A stretch of DNA of 64,000 nucleotides, taken from IMG/VR virus record IMGVR_UViG_3300040801_000976, positions 1 to 64,000 of that record, one strand, 5' to 3'. Below the pieces are notes generated by a model. It searched no databases and had not been told where the DNA came from. It saw only the letters and a list, made by a program, of their open reading frames with translations. The translations under genes were made by a program, and so were the position numbers. Positions 1-8,060 of this stretch are shown here, in pieces (the stretch's first letter is position 1; the number at the start of each line of letters is the position of its first letter). The stretch comes from a virus.

Positions 1-63
1 AACATCGGCTATAAAATCATTGCCGTTTTCGTGCTTATCTAAAGCTTCGTTCTCTTTACTCAT
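1..63 (-). CDS. Partial cassette ORF (MSKENEALDKHENGNDFIADV...), runs off the window
   Basis: ATG at 63 inside the first attC loop; frame is open to position 1 through the R'' core. Confidence 0.6.
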   Translation of the reverse strand, partial: MSKENEALDKHENGNDFIADV

Positions 64-123
64 TTTGTTTATATTTTAAAAGTTCAGCGTATTTAATCGG
101 CAACGCTTCATAGCCGTAGTACG

Positions 124-333
124 TTAGCCACCATTTAAAACAGGCTCTTTGCAAGCTCGGTGGTTTTCTAAAATACTAATCGCTTCATTTAGTTCTTCAA
201 TAGCATCTAAGTCAGCATCTACATCAGGACAAGGTACGTCAATTTTACAGTTTCTTTTTATGAAGCTGTTTTTAATAAATGTCTTTTCAGCTTTTTCTCG
301 CTGTTCTTTCAATTGTTGAATAATTCTTTCCAT
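124..333 (-). CDS. Small hypothetical cassette protein (MERIIQQL...)
   Basis: ORF track 124..366 with probable ATG at 333; stop TAA lies in the R' core. Confidence 0.7.
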   Translation of the reverse strand: MERIIQQLKEQREKAEKTFIKNSFIKRNCKIDVPCPDVDADLDAIEELNEAISILENHRACKEPVLNGG

Positions 334-568
334 AATAAAAACGGTGGCTAACAAAGTATATAGCACATAGCCTGTCAGCCGTTTTTAAAACTATGTGCGG
401 TTATTAAATTATTTTTTATCTACTTAGGTCTGTGAGTGGCTACGTGCCATATACAAACCGTTGTGCTTCATTAAAATGCCACTTCGTTAAGCACAACACG
501 CAATAAAAATAATTGGCTTGTGCATCGTGCGAACGAAGTGCGTAATTGAAGGAATAAAAACAAAATCA

Positions 569-1126
569 CTACGCACGGTACTCTTTGTTTAAATATTGCC
601 CATCTACGTGCGAACGTATATTATCGTGTACGTGTCCAGCTTCCCAAATTATATCTTCTTCCCTTCCGTTCACAAATCGCTCCAACACTTCTTGTTTAGT
701 GTAAAGCTCGGCTTTATGTATGTCGCTTGTATAGCCGTTTGAGTTTTTACCCCACCACAGTACGCTGTTGCCCACATAGCCGTTTTGAATGTAAAAGTTG
801 CTGTTGTCTGGGAATCGCTCCATCGCTTTCCTACGCTTATCTATTCTCTTTCGCTCTCGGTTCATCATTTCAACCTGCCAACGTTTCTTTTCACTACCTT
901 CAAACATCACCTTGTCCATGCCCGCAGTCCTTCGCACCTTTAAATCTGTGAACTTTGGCTCATCATCATAAAGCGTTCATTCAAACGGCTCTGTTACTAA
1001 CGATTTAGCCTCGCCTGGGCTATCTGCATAAGTAACTGGTATTTCATCAATTCTATAACCTTCGTGTGGGTTGTCGCTTAACATACCCTCGTGCCATATT
1101 CTAAATGCTTTTTTAATTAATTCCAT
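569..1126 (-). pseudogene. 185-codon hypothetical gene with a single in-frame TGA (977-979), located inside an attC loop
   Basis: ATG at 1126 (MELIKKAFRIWHEG...) is in frame with track ORF 569..937; the only interruption is EPFE*TLY. Confidence 0.7.
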
Positions 1127-1229
1127 CGCTATATTTTGTTTTTATTTGTTCTCATATCAAGGTTTCTGCAAACTCGGATGAGCCAACTATTCTTATTGCC
1201 ATCCGTTAGCAACAAGGCTACCTATCGCC

Positions 1230-1406
1230 TCATATATCAGCTTCTTTATGATTATACATTAATTGCATCACCCAAGCATCTTCAAACTCATACATTCCAC
1301 AAGTTGTACACGCTTCATCCATTGTGTCGTAATAATTTATCTTTCCGTTTTCGTCCTTCATAAAGTCCATATTCCGAAGGTCTATAATTACAAATTGTCC
1401 TTTCAT
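1230..1406 (-). CDS. 58-aa hypothetical cassette protein (MKGQFVIIDLRNMDFMKDENG...)
   Basis: Translated by hand; fills the cassette body 1205-1439; AT-rich leader. Confidence 0.7.
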   Translation of the reverse strand: MKGQFVIIDLRNMDFMKDENGKINYYDTMDEACTTCGMYEFEDAWVMQLMYNHKEADI

Positions 1407-1520
1407 AATTTATAGTTTTAAAACCGCCCGGTTGCTAACAATGTGTATAGCAAATAAGCCAGTTAAGTTTATATTTCAATTTATAGTTTTGTGGTGGCTT
1501 ACTTGCCATACACTCGTCCG

Positions 1521-1739
1521 TTAGCGGTAATGCTTAAAAACCGCTATCACGATCAACCACATGGGTACGACTAATATAAATCCTGCCAACAAATAACTTT
1601 TACTTTCTAATCCATATTCGCTACCTAAGTAAGCTAATGAAAGTACGCACGTTGCAAATAAATACACAAAAAGCACTACCGCTAACAAACGGTATAAAAA
1701 ATGCCTTTCTTTGTCTGTAATTTTAATATTTATTTTCAT
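1521..1739 (-). CDS. Small two-TM membrane protein (cassette)
   Basis: ORF track; two hydrophobic segments; starts in the attC loop and stops in the R' TAA. Confidence 0.7.
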   Translation of the reverse strand: MKINIKITDKERHFLYRLLAVVLFVYLFATCVLSLAYLGSEYGLESKSYLLAGFILVVPMWLIVIAVFKHYR

Positions 1740-1821
1740 ATCTAAAGTATTTATAATTTGATAATTAAGTCCATTTAATACGGCACATTTTCATACCGCA
1801 GTACGTTAGGCGTAATGCAAT

Positions 1822-2028
1822 TTAATCAGTACGCCTTTCAATATTTATAGTTCCTTCAAATGCTCTGGCGTTTGCAATCGTTTCGGCTTCTTCATAACTA
1901 TCGCAGTCAGCTTCCCATTGTCCATTTATATACACTTGGTAGTAAGCACTACGCCTAACACCGTGTAATAAATCATTACTTGGTAATGGTTCTAAATCTT
2001 CTACGTTAAAATCAAATAAGTCTGTCAT
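1822..2028 (-). CDS. Small hypothetical cassette protein
   Basis: ORF track; starts in the attC loop and reads through R''. Confidence 0.7.
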   Translation of the reverse strand: MTDLFDFNVEDLEPLPSNDLLHGVRRSAYYQVYINGQWEADCDSYEEAETIANARAFEGTINIERRTD

Positions 2029-2078
2029 TTTAATATTATTTTAAGTTATTAATACGCAATGCTTAATACACTATTTCG

Positions 2079-2315
2079 TTAGCAACAATTTGCCCCACAA
2101 TCGCACTCTTGTCCATCAGGGTCGCTTAATGTTCGAGGTTCGCATCTTCCTGTATTGCCACATTTGGGGCAAACAGATTTGCTAACAAACGGTATATTTA
2201 ATGCTTGTAGTATCTTTTCATAGTAATCTGTCAAATTACAGTCCTACATTTGTAAACCTTTGTCATAAACTTCAAACAATAGCTTTTCAATCAATTTTCG
2301 TTTTTGCTTTGCCAT
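2079..2315 (-). pseudogene. 78-codon Cys-rich (CPKC...CDC) cassette gene with in-frame TAG at 2244-2246
   Basis: MAKQKRKLIEKLLFEVYDKGLQM*DCNLTDYYEKILQALNIPFVSKSVCPKCG...NCC; ends at the TAA in R'. Confidence 0.65.
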
Positions 2316-2377
2316 TTCAAATTATATTTTGTGGTTAATAATCGCACTAAACATACCGCCAACCGTTAGCGTCCAGT

Positions 2378-2644
2378 TTACTCCCATTTGGTTTCCCCTG
2401 TTTTCTTGTGCTTATATTGTATTCCATGCGGTGCGGTTTGTATTATCTCCCAATCAGGGTCGTAAACCGTATCGCCAACATGTTGTATAGGTAATAATTT
2501 TAAAAATAGTTCCTCCAATTCGGTAGCAACGCTCGGTGCATCGGGTGCATCCATTCCATCGCAATCTTCTCTTGGTATAGTTTTTACTACTTTGTAAATT
2601 TGTTCCCATACCTCGCTTCTTTGTATTCTGTTACTTTGTTCCAT
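2378..2644 (-). CDS. Small hypothetical cassette protein
   Basis: ORF track; starts in the attC loop and reads through R'' (LPIQHVGD). Confidence 0.7.
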   Translation of the reverse strand: MEQSNRIQRSEVWEQIYKVVKTIPREDCDGMDAPDAPSVATELEELFLKLLPIQHVGDTVYDPDWEIIQTAPHGIQYKHKKTGETKWE

Positions 2645-2655
2645 TTTATTAAGTT

Positions 2656-2900
2656 TTATCTGTTAATTATTTTTAAAATTATATACCCATACAGTTGATG
2701 CTCTTCATACCAACTACTTTCTCTTCCAGTATCAGGAAATATTACAGTATAGCTTTTTGTATTGTCTCCTCCGTATTGGTCTGCATAGCTTCCAACAACG
2801 ATAACATCTTTGTCATTTTCAAAATATTTCATCGTTGAACCCAAATCTTTAGCTATATGTACTAAATTTCCTTTTTTAAATTTTTGTTTTTTTTTTTCAT
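2656..2900 (-). pseudogene. Hypothetical gene frameshifted in an A11 run after the ATG, with its 3' end joined to the cassette array
   Basis: ATG at 2900 followed by 11 A; 9 or 12 A would restore MKK..QKFKKGNLVHIAKDLGSTMKYF in frame with ORF 2656..2844. Confidence 0.55.
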
Positions 2901-3025
2901 TTTATTCAAGGATAATAACACTAAATATTCTATTACTATAATGTTTAAATTATTAATTTATTTATATTATTTAAGTGGACGTGCCGGGCAATAGTTTATA
3001 ATTTGTTGAAATGAATTAAAATTCA

Positions 3026-3057
3026 TTTGGATATTTACAGGAAATGTAGTATATTTG
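3026..3057 (+). promoter_or_regulatory. Bacteroidota sigma-A type promoter for the homing endonuclease gene
   Basis: TTTG (3026-3029) - 20 bp - TATATTTG (3050-3057) fits the TTTG-N19-21-TAnnTTTG consensus; 27 bp before ATG 3085. Confidence 0.7.
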
Positions 3058-3084
3058 CAACTTATCCAAATAAATAATAACATT

Positions 3085-3504
3085 ATGAATATATCATATA
3101 TATCTGGATTTTTTGATGCTGATGGTTCTATAACTATGTGCCACAATTTAAAGAATGACAAATTTAAGACTATTAAAATAGATTTTACTAATATAGAATT
3201 AGAATTACTTAAATCCATACAATCTTATTTATTTGTAGAACATAATCTTAAGTTGTTTATATCTACAAAACCATCTAAAAGATCAGCACATTCTATTTCA
3301 TATAGTCTATCTTTATCAAGTAATCAAAAATGTATTACTTTATGTAAATTATTAAAGTCTAATCATCCAAAAAAATTACATAGAATAAATACTATAATTA
3401 AGTATCATGATAAAGTTACTAATAGAAATGGAAAATATACTGAACAACAAATTACGAGAAAGTTAGCTTATGAAAGGCTATTTTCCTCCACTAATTTTCA
3501 TTAG
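3085..3504 (+). CDS. Single-motif LAGLIDADG homing endonuclease, antisense within the intron
   Basis: N-terminal YISGFFDADGSI motif; 139 aa. Confidence 0.9.
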   Translation: MNISYISGFFDADGSITMCHNLKNDKFKTIKIDFTNIELELLKSIQSYLFVEHNLKLFISTKPSKRSAHSISYSLSLSSNQKCITLCKLLKSNHPKKLHRINTIIKYHDKVTNRNGKYTEQQITRKLAYERLFSSTNFH

Positions 3505-4581
3505 TGATCGGACTATATTATCATCCGTTCTGGATGTCACTCGCTATGGACTTACCGTAGTATTCCTAGTCTCTGAACCTGCTTACTTCTTCCAGTAAGA
3601 TTGGCTGCTGATTGGCATAGATTTTTTCTTTAGCTTCCCAGCAATTCAAGTGATTTTTTCATTGTATATTCCTATACAAGCGACCCTTATTTAAGTCGAA
3701 CCCGAGTCCAAACAATTTCCAACCCATTATAAAACAACCATTCTTTAGTGGGTTTTTCGGGGTTTCTACACAAATAGAGATAAACCCTTGTCTCGTATTA
3801 TTTGTTTTGCAGCTCTCCTTAGAATGGTTGTAAAATAATCAAGGCTATGCCACCTTTAAATGTACATAATTACTACGACAATGCAGGAATCGAACCTACC
3901 TTACAGACCTTCTCTATGCCGTACCTTGATTAAAACTAAACAATCTATTCCAAAACTAACTATAACACCTATTCTCTCAACTAAATGAGCTTAATCTATC
4001 ACCAAGTTCTTATGTTTATGGTATAGGCTTTAGGATACTTTCAATAATTAGAACTCTTGTAGATTCATTAGAGTTTTTTTAAAACATGCTTTTGAAGAAA
4101 TATTCGGCATTCTGATGATTCTCATACAATAGTTAATATACCATATGTAATTCCTCAATTTATTCTTCAGCCAGTGATATTATCCAGCATATTTTCCGTT
4201 AGCTATAAAACTCTTGTTAGAGTACAACGATTGACTAACATGATCATTGTTTAAAATAAAAGATAATCTGACTTAACAGCATTTACCAGATTGTACGCTT
4301 CAGACATAGTGAATTATCAACTATGCTTGTAGTATCTTTTATTTATTTTAATTGAGTTGACAGCGCATACCTAATAATTATAGCATCGCAACCGTTTAGG
4401 ATGAGTATGTGCAATATGGCTCAATGTTAGTAATTAATAGTAATAAGTATTGGATAGACCACTTAACCCAACTTTTAACGTCCTTTTATGAACTTGTACT
4501 TCTTACCATTAAATTACCCTTGTAGGATATTTCCTACTGCGTTAATATTTAAGCTATCGCTGACGTGGTTTGATTTCACGT

Positions 4582-4767
4582 TTAATAAATATCAATTTCA
4601 GTTGCATCACAATCAGAAGTAAATCTTCCATTACCTCTGTAGTTTAATTCTTTTTTAAAGATACTAATCCATAACCCTCTTTCATAATCAGTATCAAACT
4701 TAATTCTATTATTTTCAATACAGTTTATTATGATAGAGTTCTTTAAAACTTGGTAAAGGGTTAACAT
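4582..4767 (-). CDS. Hypothetical protein (possibly a frameshifted C-terminal part of the upstream gene)
   Basis: ORF track; overlaps 4715..5047 by 53 bp. Confidence 0.4.
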   Translation of the reverse strand: MLTLYQVLKNSIIINCIENNRIKFDTDYERGLWISIFKKELNYRGNGRFTSDCDATEIDIY

Positions 4768-5047
4768 TGAATTTCTTTAATACTTTTGAAATAGTATTAT
4801 TTTCATCTTGAAATTCAATGGATGTGTAAAGATGCATACCATAATGCTCATTTTGAGTTGTTTTGCTTATAATAAACAAGTTGTTGATTTGTTCTTGGGT
4901 TAAATTATATTCATTAGGATATTCTTTACTATAAGCAGACTCTTTCATCAGTTTGTAATGGTCAGATAATGTTTCTAGTTGTTGTATATGCTCATAATTA
5001 TTATTTATCAATGAAATTAGTTCTAATTCTTTTATAAATGCTTTCAT
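4715..5047 (-). CDS. Hypothetical protein (MKAFIKELEL...)
   Basis: ORF track; probable ATG at 5047 just downstream of the hammerhead cleavage site. Confidence 0.6.
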   Translation of the reverse strand: MKAFIKELELISLINNNYEHIQQLETLSDHYKLMKESAYSKEYPNEYNLTQEQINNLFIISKTTQNEHYGMHLYTSIEFQDENNTISKVLKKFNVNPLPSFKELYHNKLY

Positions 5048-5068
5048 GATTATGAATTTTAATTGTTT

Positions 5069-5165
5069 ATACCTGACTACTAAGTTTCTTTTACTATAGA
5101 TACACTTCATCGTGTAGAGCTACAAATCTTAGTAGTTTCGTCTATTAAAGACTCATCAGAGGTAT
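5069..5165 (-). ncRNA. Type I hammerhead ribozyme
   Basis: AUACCU-CUGAUGA-GUCU(uuaau)AGAC-GAAA-CUACUAAG...CUUAGUAG-UC^AGGUAU; complete core and three stems. Confidence 0.92.
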
Positions 5166-5689
5166 TTTAAAATAACCAACACCAATAGCTAATTGGAATG
5201 ATATTTATTGTCACCTGACACGCTGGCTTTACAACTCACAGATTGTAGCCCTAAGAGCTAGAACATATCATCAATCTTCTAAATTACAGTAGCTAACTGT
5301 TTGAGTAATTCTAAGTACTTTTTACATTGTGCAACAACTTAGATTCTATTTCAATAATTACTCTATTTATTTGATTTGTTGGTTATTTATACTTTAAAAA
5401 CAAAGCTACTTTGAGAAATATTAATTGCTTCTACTTCCCTTTATTACCAAATATGGTCTACATTGATTCTCTTACTCCATAGCTTTTAAAGTAGTCATTC
5501 TTTATGGTTCAATCAGCAATAAAGGCAGGTTACAAGCCTGATAATTCACAATTAATATCAACCAACATTTTCTCTCAACTCTCCAGTTGATTTATGATAG
5601 TTATAATGCAATAACCGCTTAGAAATAAATTTCCGCGCTCTTATTATTTGAAAACTTGATTAGTAGCTTTGTTGTTATTTATTTTTATA

Positions 5690-6167
5690 CTATAATAATG
5701 GTTTTGCTTGATGAATTAAATCATCGAATGTTTTAGAGAATTTATCTCTTAATTCTTGGGTTTTGAAAGTCAATACCCCCGAACAACCAGCCTCCTCCCC
5801 CAACCCTTTTTTTGTTATTATAAAAATAAATAATATATTTTATAGTACCATCTTCCCAATCAGGCTTCCAACCACCATTCCAAATATCTCTAAATTTAAT
5901 TAATTGCATTAAAGCTAAAAATGCTTCAGCGTATTCTATGGATGTTATTGTATTAATATCTATTCTTACATCTCCAATACATTCAATAATAGATCCATTT
6001 GAACTGGAATAATAACAAACCTCAGGTAAAAAAGGTAAACATTCTTCATTACTTAATACCAACGGTGTTTCTTTTTTCTTTTTAAAAGATATATTACCAT
6101 CAGATAAATTAGACTTATCTAAATCTATCCCCACACCATCAGATATTTCAAAATTTATGTGTTTCAT
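5690..6167 (-). pseudogene. Hypothetical gene with an apparent frameshift in the A/G runs near 5775-5815
   Basis: Track ORF ends in low-complexity KKRVGGGG; the alternative frame continues VLTFKTQELRDKFSKTFDDLIHQAKPLL to TAG at 5690. Confidence 0.55.
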
Positions 6168-6279
6168 AATTAAGTTTTAAATTGTTTTAGTTAGATTATA
6201 GTTCTTTATATTTAAAAATAACCAACACCAACTTGCTAAAGTCGGAATGATATTAATTGTCATCTCACCTTAATATAAG

Positions 6280-6486
6280 TTAGCAACAAGGCTTAGATTC
6301 AATCATCTTTAATCGCTCTATCTCTTCTTTTAACCTTCTCATCTCATGCTCTATCTCTGTAATTAGCATCACTGAGCCACCTGTATATCCTTCAAGTAAA
6401 TTATCATACAAGTTTTTTATTGGAGTTTCCAACCTTTTAGAAATTACATCTAAATTTTTAAATTTATCCATGTTTTTAAACCGCAT
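6280..6486 (-). CDS. Small coiled-coil hypothetical protein with a cassette-type 3' end
   Basis: ORF track; stop lies in GTTAGCAACAAGGCT (+ strand), identical to 1205-1219. Confidence 0.65.
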   Translation of the reverse strand: MRFKNMDKFKNLDVISKRLETPIKNLYDNLLEGYTGGSVMLITEIEHEMRRLKEEIERLKMIESKPCC

Positions 6487-6491
6487 TGTTT

Positions 6492-6597
6492 ATACCTAAC
6501 TACCAACCTTATTTCCCTATTTACTAAATAATCCATATGTTATTTAGTCAACTAGTTAGTAGTTTCGTCTTAATTTTCAAAGACTCATCAAAAGTAT
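6492..6597 (-). ncRNA. Second, degenerate type I hammerhead ribozyme
   Basis: AUACUU-UUGAUGA-GUCU..AGAC-GAAA-CUACUAAC...GUUGGUAG-UU-AGGUAU; C>U at core C3 and at the cleavage triplet. Confidence 0.75.
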
Positions 6598-6609
6598 TTT
6601 AAAATAATC

Positions 6610-6792
6610 CTAATACGTATTACCCTTCACATACTTAATAGCCTCATCTCTAAAACCAGCCTTAAACGGAGCCACAACTTGCTTACAAAAGGAACTCTCC
6701 TTAGCCTCATCAGTATCTCTTCTATCAAAATACCTCTTAGCCTAGTAAGTTCCATTAACATACTTACATCCCCACCACAAATTCTTATCCAT
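6610..6792 (-). pseudogene. 60-codon hypothetical gene with in-frame TAG at 6742-6744
   Basis: MDKNLWWGCKYVNGTY*AKRYFDRRDTDEAKESSFCKQVVAPFKAGFRDEAIKYVKGNTY; start overlaps the stop of 6785..6991. Confidence 0.65.
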
Positions 6793-6991
6793 AATAATGA
6801 TAATTAATTAAATAATAAAATATACTCCAAAACAACACAGCTAACAAACCATACACAAACTCTTTAGTAAAAGGTTCATAAATAGCTTTCACACTATATT
6901 TATTAAAACAACGTAACCAATGGTTAATCCATTGAAAGAAAAACAAAAAAGTAGTAAGTAAAGCTAATGTAAATGTAATAAAAAGTAACAT
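6785..6991 (-). CDS. Small two-TM membrane protein
   Basis: ORF track; hydrophobic. Confidence 0.6.
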   Translation of the reverse strand: MLLFITFTLALLTTFLFFFQWINHWLRCFNKYSVKAIYEPFTKEFVYGLLAVLFWSIFYYLINYHYYG

Positions 6992-7333
6992 ATATATATA
7001 TATAATATAATAATTTAGTTAATAATAAATAAGTAATAAAGTATAGAAACGAGTAGTAATAGAATTACTATCTAAAATAGTTAAGTAAAAGGTAATGAAA
7101 AAGTAAAAGGAAAAGGGGTAGTATGGTACAGTCACTCTACCTTTCACTCATTCTGTTATTATAAAACACGACAAAATGATCGAGTTTATATATTCTAGTA
7201 TATGTGTTTTCGAACGATTTGGCGGGTTTTTAAAAATTGGTCTTAGTAATCATATAGTTAACCTTAAAGTAATACTTTAGGTCAATTAATTAAAATATTA
7301 ACACCAAGTAATATTATTAAATAATAATACCAC

Positions 7334-7750
7334 CTATTCAATAACTTTAACATATAATACTTTATCTTTATTTATAGAACCTTTACCTAACCAATATTGT
7401 ACTACATTACATATTGCTGTATCCCTTCTAATTAATAAATTACGAGCCGAATTATCAAATACATCAATTTGAACTAAACGCATATCAGAACCGTACAATT
7501 TTCTAATAGAGGCAATGTAGGTGTAATCATCCGGTTCTTGTAGATATACAGCAACACGCTTTACATTTAAAAAAAGCATTAAACCATGAACATTATAAGA
7601 TATATCTTGTTTAAATCCCAAAAAACTTACACACCTACCTTCTTGAATAATAAAAGGTATGTTTAATAAAAATACAGGACCAAAATACCATAATGCTACA
7701 ACCACAATAAATATTGTTACAACCAGTGAAACTACAATAATATTTAACAT
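7334..7750 (-). CDS. Membrane-anchored hypothetical protein
   Basis: ORF track; N-terminal TM segment. Confidence 0.7.
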   Translation of the reverse strand: MLNIIVVSLVVTIFIVVVALWYFGPVFLLNIPFIIQEGRCVSFLGFKQDISYNVHGLMLFLNVKRVAVYLQEPDDYTYIASIRKLYGSDMRLVQIDVFDNSARNLLIRRDTAICNVVQYWLGKGSINKDKVLYVKVIE

Positions 7751-7774
7751 ATGTTTAAATTTTAAGTTAATACT

Positions 7775-7815
7775 AAAAAAAAATAACTCCCAATTAAATT
7801 AATAAAAGGGAGTTA
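7775..7815 (-). terminator. Putative intrinsic terminator
   Basis: TAACTCCC/GGGAGTTA hairpin followed on the minus strand by a T9 run. Confidence 0.5.
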
Positions 7816-8060
7816 AGGTATGTGTTTCTTGTTTATCTAAGTATCATTTAGCCACATCAGAGCTTTTGCTTAAGTAAACATAAATTTTACATTAGGAAAG
7901 TAAAGTTATTCTTATATGTATAGTTGCATAATAAAGAATAAAGTAATAATAAACCACTGTGTAAAACATAACTAACTAATTAATCGTTTATGCGATGAGA
8001 ATACATACAATTAGTGAATAACTTTACTTATATATATTAAATTATGAACAGAATACTCAA

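Follow-up and report, generated by a model that had tools for sequence, protein, structure and literature searches.

A row of seven hairpin sites occupies the first 2,370 nucleotides (nt) of the IMG/VR virus record IMGVR_UViG_3300040801_000976, a contig of 128.8 kb whose positions 1 to 64,000 were analysed as one stretch (hereafter the window, 64,000 nt long). The sites share AAC and GTT cores, lie in the same orientation and have long imperfect arms, and together with the small open reading frames (ORFs) among them they resemble part of an integron-like cassette array. The label of a crAss-like phage, which an earlier note had attached to this DNA from its letters, is plausible, as the large terminase is 24-30% identical to those of crAss-like phages.

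The hairpin array at the contig start

On the plus strand, a site consists of a core ending in AAC (mostly GCTAAC), 3 nt, an arm of 17-19 nt, a loop of 33 to about 150 nt, the complementary arm, 5-6 nt, and a core starting with GTT (mostly GTTAGC). The features of the array are listed below; bit scores refer to R1, a covariance model built from four sites of the window and two sites of Cellulophaga phage phi17:1.

1..128, minus strand: site 1, cut by the contig start at its AAC core; 85.6 bits
123..352, minus strand: cassette body 1 with ORF 124-333 (69 aa, no known family; stop codon TAA at 124-126 in the GTT box) and 10-bp complementary ends
347..468, minus strand: site 2; 95.7 bits (match 347-465); the right core is the variant GTTGTG
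462..497, no strand: near-empty body of 36 bp with 9-bp complementary ends
491..1210, minus strand: site 3, recognised by eye; core, 3 nt, arm 501-517, loop of 664 nt, arm 1182-1198, 6 nt, core 1205-1210
1204..1531, minus strand: whole cassette, body 1205-1439 with ORF 1230-1406, plus site 4 (1434-1525)
1520..1810, minus strand: cassette, body 1520-1686 plus site 5 (1681-1810); 107.1 bits; inverted repeat I1
1805..2083, minus strand: cassette, body 1805-1959 plus site 6 (1954-2083); 98 bits; inverted repeat I15
2078..2370, minus strand: cassette, body 2078-2186 plus site 7 (2181-2370, 190 nt); 35.9 bits, E 1.3e-4
2378..2644, minus strand: ORF upstream of the array in gene sense; no site beyond

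When applied to the whole 128.8-kb record, R1 retrieved six sites only (1-128, 347-465, 1434-1525, 1681-1810, 1954-2083 and 2181-2370), which scored 35.9-107 bits and in every case better on the minus strand. Besides these six no match fell below E = 1, the next best reaching 15.3 bits (E 2.7). Sites 1 (85.6 bits) and 7 (35.9 bits) were recovered although they are not part of the training set; the long site 7 had been left out of the alignment because MAFFT misplaced it. In the source alignment of R1, 23 pairs are predicted and 11 of them show compensatory changes (RNAalifold, six sites). Strict helix scans with Watson-Crick or G.T rules picked up just two of the window sites, because bulges break arms that are held in a fixed register, and no Rfam family matched the sites of the window.

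Site 3 has no R1 match. Its arms pair at 15 of 17 positions, both mismatches being A/C on the plus strand, and the regions 455-600, 940-1060 and 1120-1215 fold no better than shuffled sequences (z -0.5 to -1.3), so that this site is defined by its arm complementarity alone. Thus, the row of consecutive AAC/GTT sites with imperfect arms described in the earlier note is real, while its count of eight has to be lowered to seven, six found by R1 and one by eye. The loop of site 3 holds two ORFs (569-937 and 977-1126), the former of which matches phrog_2457, a family of unknown function. The segment 462-1210 is peculiar in that the genes lie in the hairpin loop and the body comprises just 36 bp; in a circular single strand, the loop of site 3 and this body would be equivalent, as the two lobes of a dumbbell.

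The start of each body is complementary to its own far core and to 3-14 further bases (end pairs 123/352, 462/497, 1205/1439, 1520/1686, 1805/1959 and 2078/2186), which bears out, for six bodies, an observation already made in the earlier note. The same holds for its statement that folding favours the minus strand. Mismatches in the arms are A/C on the plus strand and therefore G.T on the minus strand, and when both strands were folded as DNA the minus strand had the lower energy in five of six window sites. For site 7 the values are -19.3 kcal/mol on the minus and -10.2 on the plus strand, and site 4 scores 84.3 bits with R1 on the minus strand versus 28.9 on the plus strand.

Positions 1-2700 contain small ORFs only, all of them on the minus strand. 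Three, as noted before, stop at a TAA inside the GTT box (124-126, 1521-1523 and 2079-2081), and three start inside the loop of a site (63, 1739 and 2028) and read through arm and core in different frames, so that the conservation lies in the nucleotides and not in a protein. The start at 63, in the loop of site 1, belongs to an ORF that leaves the contig. ORF 1521-1739 (72 aa, membrane-protein-like) starts in a loop and also stops in a GTT box, ORF 1822-2028 begins in the loop of site 6, and the Cys-rich ORF 2079-2234 (51 aa) has its stop inside the GTT box. If the border is placed at the GTT core, the ORFs remain complete in each plus-strand unit of body and right-hand site; the opposite choice cuts three of them. 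Searches of Pfam and PHROGs gave no function for the cassette ORFs of the window. They may be early genes read from early promoters of the phage, as the earlier note supposed; the preprint on phi14:2, a crAss-like phage, reports that its early transcripts share no upstream motif (10.1101/2020.03.07.982082). No site follows beyond ORF 2378-2644, and the array therefore starts there. The first 56 aa of this ORF recur in one viral contig, L147 (88% aa identity; 91% nt identity over 221 bp), downstream of three R1 sites. This was the only relative of the flanking ORF among the viral contigs, so that there was no closely related phage with which the array could be compared locus by locus.

The contig starts precisely with the AAC core of site 1. 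Its completeness is rated at 80%, and the array leaves it on the side where a recombinase gene would lie. The remainder of the ORF that starts in site 1 is not found elsewhere in the 128.8-kb record, so the two contig ends do not join. Assemblies may break at this point owing to differences in the neighbouring cassettes within the population; one 529-nt contig of run X1 overruns the contig start. Among other assembled contigs aligned to the window, joints from 374 to 438 and from 1455 to 1501 correspond to shorter loops in relatives. Loose contig ends at 128, 1207 and 1522 and at 349, 1435 and 2180 all lie at cores; they stem from relatives' contigs among the matches listed and were not counted as evidence.

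The sites are not intrinsic terminators (a short GC-rich stem followed by a T run). A terminator scan gave 3 matches where 1.7 +/- 1.2 were expected, none of which spans the arms of a site, and sigma-70-like promoters are not enriched either (16 versus 13.0 +/- 3.2). Hairpins of the REP/RAYT or IS200/IS605 type were also rejected, as the record has no match to the Y1 HUH transposase (PF01797) and the enzyme linked to the site family is a tyrosine recombinase.

The site family and its cassette borders

A search of viral and genome contigs with a pattern of the two cores and arm ends yielded 34 viral-contig and 17 genome-contig loci. R1 has 94 matches in 30 of the viral loci, with up to eight sites per locus on one strand, and 54 matches in 16 of the genome loci. 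The latter belong mostly to Bacteroidota (Gaetbulibacter, Aquimarina, Tenacibaculum, Lutibacter, Muriicola and others), and the site-bearing viral records range from 38.8 kb (phi17:1) through 64-145 kb to 256 kb. In alignment A3, in which 81 distinct sites were fitted to the model, 95.4% of the cells are paired compared to 68.6% in column shuffles, none of 500 shuffles reaching the observed value. Double-change cells number 455 versus 136 in the control, and the covariation score is 0.644, whereas slid partners score 0.095 or less. The AA-C and G-TT columns show little or no variation. At three columns a G.U pair is kept on the gene-sense strand, in 78, 55 and 73 of the 81 sites.

The following counts omit the duplicate-lineage loci L001, L008, L014, L018, L021, L035 and L039. 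When folded as DNA, 113 of 125 distinct sites have the lower energy on the sense strand, with a mean gain of 2.6 kcal/mol. At 29 of 112 sites located 130 nt or more from the locus start, the TAA in the core is the stop codon of an ORF of 40 codons or more, compared to 6 of 224 control frames. In the bodies between neighbouring sites (here also excluding L089 and L125), complementarity of the two ends extends 3 nt or more past the 6-nt core in 117 of 180 cases, compared to 8 of 177 when pairing across the site was scored and 5% with shuffled partners. Usually, four matches beyond the core are followed by a G/A difference, which is G.T on the sense strand, and then by more matches.

The borders of homology between loci are strikingly one-sided. 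All 53 loci were compared against each other, with pairs counted from both sides and after removal of high-scoring segment pairs (HSPs) under 100 or 80 bp and of ends no more than 15 nt away from the end of a locus. There remained 318 distinct HSP ends, of which 84 fall within 12 nt of the 5' core of the sense strand, which is the GTT box of the window, and 28 within the same distance of the other core; 0.9% would be expected at each. In the 121 records with one whole site and an identity under 98.5%, homology extends more than 12 nt past the 5' core in just 7 cases (maximum 31 nt), whereas in 63 cases it continues beyond the 3' core for 12 nt or more, and for up to 845 nt. Thus, each site moves together with the body next to it on the downstream side in gene sense, and the break occurs at the core. 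Two examples involve the window itself. The cassette at 1204-1531 recurs at L028 4091-4419 with 91.5% identity over 330 bp, and both borders coincide with GTT cores between unrelated flanks. Site 1 recurs in the siphovirus phi17:1 (2624-2749, 90.6%), where the match ends at the GTT core and a different cassette lies beyond. Borders at the core are resolved to within 1-2 nt. Breakpoints at the core in related phage contigs, proposed in the earlier note as a check, are therefore seen, and its mobile unit of body plus right-hand site, bordered at the GTT core and carrying an ORF antisense to the classical arrangement, agrees with the border statistics, the end complementarity and the Freya phages described below.

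Phage phi17:1 (L001) also has a 180-bp direct repeat in AT-rich intergenic DNA (1282-1461 and 2256-2435, 99.4% identity), both copies of which end at a GTTAG core that opens a cassette body.

A linked Xer-like recombinase and the Freya isolates

A tyrosine recombinase occurs in 4 of 22 viral records (G000 plus 21 of 34 viral loci, the short contigs being excluded; L036, one of these, does have the gene). Three of the four, L007, L008 and L014, represent one lineage. In this lineage the last AAC core is followed, at a distance of about 45 nt, by the start of a recombinase gene (266 aa) that shares its strand with the cassette ORFs. L036 has the same layout with a recombinase that is 49% identical. 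In the Balneolaceae genome L063, a site, an ORF of 107 aa and a core are followed by a recombinase gene whose product is 43% identical. The distance from core to gene is 45-60 nt in L014, L036, L037 and L063. Remnants of the gene follow the last array core in L037 (3936-4013, 26 N-terminal residues) and in L046 (78-224, 49 C-terminal residues), which suggests repeated loss of the recombinase gene.

A protein search of viral contigs with the recombinase found 80 loci at 55-100% identity. After exclusion of L067-L069, which are the contigs of L014, L008 and L007, 77 loci remained, most of them extending 6 kb in both directions. All of their 138 R1 matches are located upstream of the gene and none downstream, and 137 are on the strand of the gene. 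The arrays upstream of these homologues reach 12 sites, and an R1 site is present at 27 of the 52 loci with at least 1.5 kb of upstream sequence.

The array-linked recombinases are 266-293 aa long and lack the extra domain of IntI. Their best NCBIfam model is of the XerA type (195 and 227 bits). The IntI model TIGR02249 scores 161-213 bits compared to a cut-off of 265 and aligns in two stretches that skip approximately positions 180-240, the place of the extra domain. The nearest solved chains are the Xer-like 4a8e (131 bits) and, again in two stretches, IntI4 (2a3v, 102 bits). The recombinase contains R, K, HxxR, H and Y residues, which we take to be the catalytic ones. True IntI is encoded in one of the five site-bearing bacterial genomes, on a different contig from the site. 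Both this and the Xer-like nature of the linked enzyme speak against a host IntI as the recombinase of the array, one of two sources envisaged in the earlier note.

Cultured phages offer a closer view, as the recombinase matches annotated integrases of Cellulophaga phage Ingeline (41%) and of Polaribacter phages Freya_1-10 and Leef (35-36%). The Freya genomes vary from 43,978 to 48,920 bp, and Freya_10 has 12 small ORFs between a conserved gene and the integrase gene that are missing from Freya_1. When Freya_1, Freya_5 and Freya_8 were mapped on Freya_10, reading across the starts of the circular records, they lacked blocks of about 4.9 kb, 3.2 kb and 0.9 kb, respectively. An AAC core immediately precedes every junction. 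What comes next in Freya_1 and Freya_5 is the sequence found ahead of the integrase gene in each of the four isolates compared; in Freya_8 a single cassette is missing between two cores, with just 4-5 identical bases around the joint. The first site of Freya_10 scores 30.6 bits with R1 and is cut by the record start; the other sites are too divergent for this model. The paper that describes the Freya phages takes the integrase gene as a sign of a temperate life style (PMC8776804), and in its text as covered by a term search the words cassette, integron and hairpin do not occur. In two Freya loci, L148 (4969-5592) and L149 (872-1495), a gene for an HNH endonuclease directly follows the integrase gene.

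Because of the border statistics, the end complementarity and the exact cassette differences among the Freya phages, the comparison of sequences supports an identification of the sites as cassette borders of a recombination type rather than chance hairpins.

Interpretation and relation to known cassette systems

We propose, with a probability of roughly 0.75, that positions 1-2370 of the window are the distal part of an integron-like array whose cassettes are moved singly by site-specific recombination at the core, and that the enzyme of this family is a Xer-like tyrosine recombinase. A cassette would consist of a body and a hairpin site of 92-190 nt (720 nt in one case), and the cassettes would be joined at the fixed AAC/GTT core, where recombination would move them one by one. 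The enzyme would be the compact Xer-like recombinase, and its substrate the folded gene-sense strand, as suggested by analogy and by the conserved G.T pairs. Three such pairs and an unequal spacer of 6 and 3 nt may mark this strand, in place of the extrahelical bases used by IntI, and excised circles probably exist. The recombinase gene that serves the array of the window may lie off the contig, may have been lost, or its product may be supplied in trans by another phage or the host, because the contig contains none and the array runs off its start. Directly supported, on the level of sequence comparison, are the site family with its covariation, the coincidence of cassette borders with the core, the complementarity of cassette ends, the link with the recombinase gene and the cassette-exact differences between isolates.

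Several observations weigh against this model. The 128.8-kb record has neither a PF00589 match nor a tblastn match to the recombinase of the family, and none of the five records rated at least 90% complete, phi17:1 among them, has a tyrosine recombinase; many arrays may thus be inactive relics. The earlier note, which correctly saw no recombinase in the window, had proposed to look for a tyrosine recombinase or an HUH protein in the rest of the genome, and for the record as a whole the searches with PF00589, tblastn and PF01797 all came back empty. At 25 of the 52 loci that have the recombinase gene and 1.5 kb or more of upstream sequence there is no R1 site, and the Xer-like genes of four bacterial genomes have no site nearby, so that either the enzyme family is wider than the arrays or R1 is too narrow. 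The recombinase, as judged from its sequence, lacks the domain that IntI uses on folded sites. Among the listed matches of assembled contigs to the window there was no circle and no core-to-core joint. Site 3 needs a loop of 664 nt, which is hard to fold. The fitting of alignment A3 to the model inflates the pairing counts. Finally, an RNA structure would be served just as well by G.U pairs on the gene-sense strand, although roles as DNA substrate and RNA hairpin could coexist.

This last point leads to two explanations in which the hairpins act on expression. Each small gene could carry a regulatory stem-loop that acts as a leader or in processing or stability, and shuffling could result from ordinary homologous recombination between the conserved repeats. 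Such a mode has been proposed for the promoter-stem-loop (PeSL) cassettes of T4-type phages, which carry an early promoter and in which small ORFs between repeated stem-loops undergo modular shuffling, ascribed to homologous recombination. The position of the sites before each ORF in gene sense, the three window ORFs that start in loops, the better folding of the sense strand with its conserved G.U pairs, and the absence of a recombinase from most arrays would all fit. Homologous recombination, however, does not account for borders that are passed at the 5' core in 7 of 121 records and at the 3' core in 63, nor for Freya joints that share just 4-5 nt of identity around the AAC core. It also leaves the complementary cassette ends without a role, and the recombinase is strictly linked in side and strand. 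Furthermore, neither sigma-70-like promoters nor terminators are enriched. We therefore regard regulatory stem-loops as an unlikely explanation; the phage array differs from PeSL cassettes by its fixed core, its one-sided borders and its dedicated recombinase. A role in RNA only, for instance as intercistronic hairpins that serve as nuclease processing sites in a long early transcript, with the modularity of the DNA as a by-product, is quite improbable. It would agree with the location of sites between cistrons and with G.U wobble pairs conserved on the mRNA-sense strand, but the core borders, the complementary body ends and the recombinase at the array end would remain unexplained, and an AAC/GTT core with a second box in dyad arrangement is the layout of a tyrosine-recombinase site.

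The sites could also be ordinary attC sites of host integrons that phages have acquired as clusters of attC without an integrase (CALINs) and that are served by the IntI of the host. Their architecture is attC-like, and formally the array of the window, with seven sites and no integrase, is such a cluster. CALINs have been reported from virulent phages, including a flavobacterial (Polaribacter) phage, by means of models trained on IntI systems, and were recombined by IntI1 (Qi et al. 2023, PMC9892861); the main text of that paper mentions neither Cellulophaga nor crAss, and its supplementary tables may list further phages. Yet Polaribacter phage P12002L, a reported attC carrier, is not clearly a member of the site family described here, its R1 match reaching just 20.5 bits (E 0.11). 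The rarity of true IntI among the site-bearing genomes, the lack of conserved bulged bases, the inverted cassette ORFs and the Xer-like linked enzyme also contradict this origin, which we consider very improbable.

The proposed site-specific cassette system nevertheless has much in common with integrons, in particular with sedentary chromosomal ones that have homogeneous attC sites. These, too, contain arrays of imperfect hairpins in one orientation, with AAC/GTT cores and a second inner box. Further shared traits are a border of the G|TT type, strand-asymmetric folding, and cassette ends that would rebuild a longer stem in the circle. The recombinase gene at the array end, left of the site in the classical orientation, on the opposite strand and next to the first G|TT, occupies the position of intI, and the Freya insertions are placed next to a fixed recombinase-proximal sequence. 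No attI was recognised in the window; in Freya, what lies beyond the last AAC core is one constant sequence shared by the four isolates compared. In contrast to integrons, whose IntI has an extra domain, the recombinase of the phage family is Xer-like without this domain. Instead of conserved extrahelical bases, the predicted folds of the phage sites show three G.T pairs and a 6/3-nt spacer; in site 4, for example, 19 pairs are predicted and no bulge. In integrons the ORFs are on the top strand and attC lies 3' of the gene, whereas here the ORFs are on the folding strand and the site lies 5'. The phage ORFs run in the same direction as the recombinase gene, and often they begin inside the loop and extend across arm and core. 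A last difference is that the carriers are phages of Bacteroidota. The system is thus integron-like in its working and build and departs from integrons of the IntI type in three defining traits, namely the IntI domain, the extrahelical bases and the orientation of the ORFs. A Xer enzyme that acts on the hairpin of one DNA strand is also known from the CTX phage of Vibrio cholerae. There, one site per genome and host enzymes mediate integration of the whole phage, in contrast to arrays of gene cassettes. Full-text searches of the literature turned up no account of cassettes moved by a Xer-type enzyme in phages of Bacteroidota.

Going further, we lean towards the view that phages of Bacteroidota as different as 38-kb siphoviruses, crAss-like phages and 250-kb phages share a pool of small cassettes by means of their own analogue of an integron. 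In this analogue a minimal Xer-like recombinase would, without the extra domain of IntI, act on folded single-strand hairpins in which G.T pairs, in place of flipped-out bases, mark the active strand, and cassettes would be exchanged between unrelated phages in one host, as may have happened between the phage of the window and phi17:1. Integrons are regarded as an invention of bacteria that is bound up with IntI and the special domain of this enzyme. If confirmed, a second system of cassettes would show that the principle arose or persists outside IntI, in a form that is phage-borne, widespread, based on a simpler enzyme and inverted in gene orientation. It would also explain the shuffling of small accessory genes, possibly including anti-defence genes, in marine and gut-related phages of Bacteroidota. 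Cultured phages carry its parts, as Freya_1-10 and Ingeline have the recombinase gene and phi17:1 has the sites. For the window itself, the genes of the array would be mobile cargo and not core phage genes, in an array that the assembly has cut exactly at a core.

The region beside the array (2700-8000) has a low G+C content (27-31% versus about 36% elsewhere) and few long ORFs. On the minus strand at 3489-3703 it contains a full-length group I intron (Rfam RF00028, 90.5 bits) that overlaps an ORF of 149 aa on the opposite strand (3055-3504, plus) with a LAGLIDADG-like motif. A weak match to the type III hammerhead is located at 5130-5185 on the minus strand (23.2 bits compared to a gathering score of 48.5, E 0.36).

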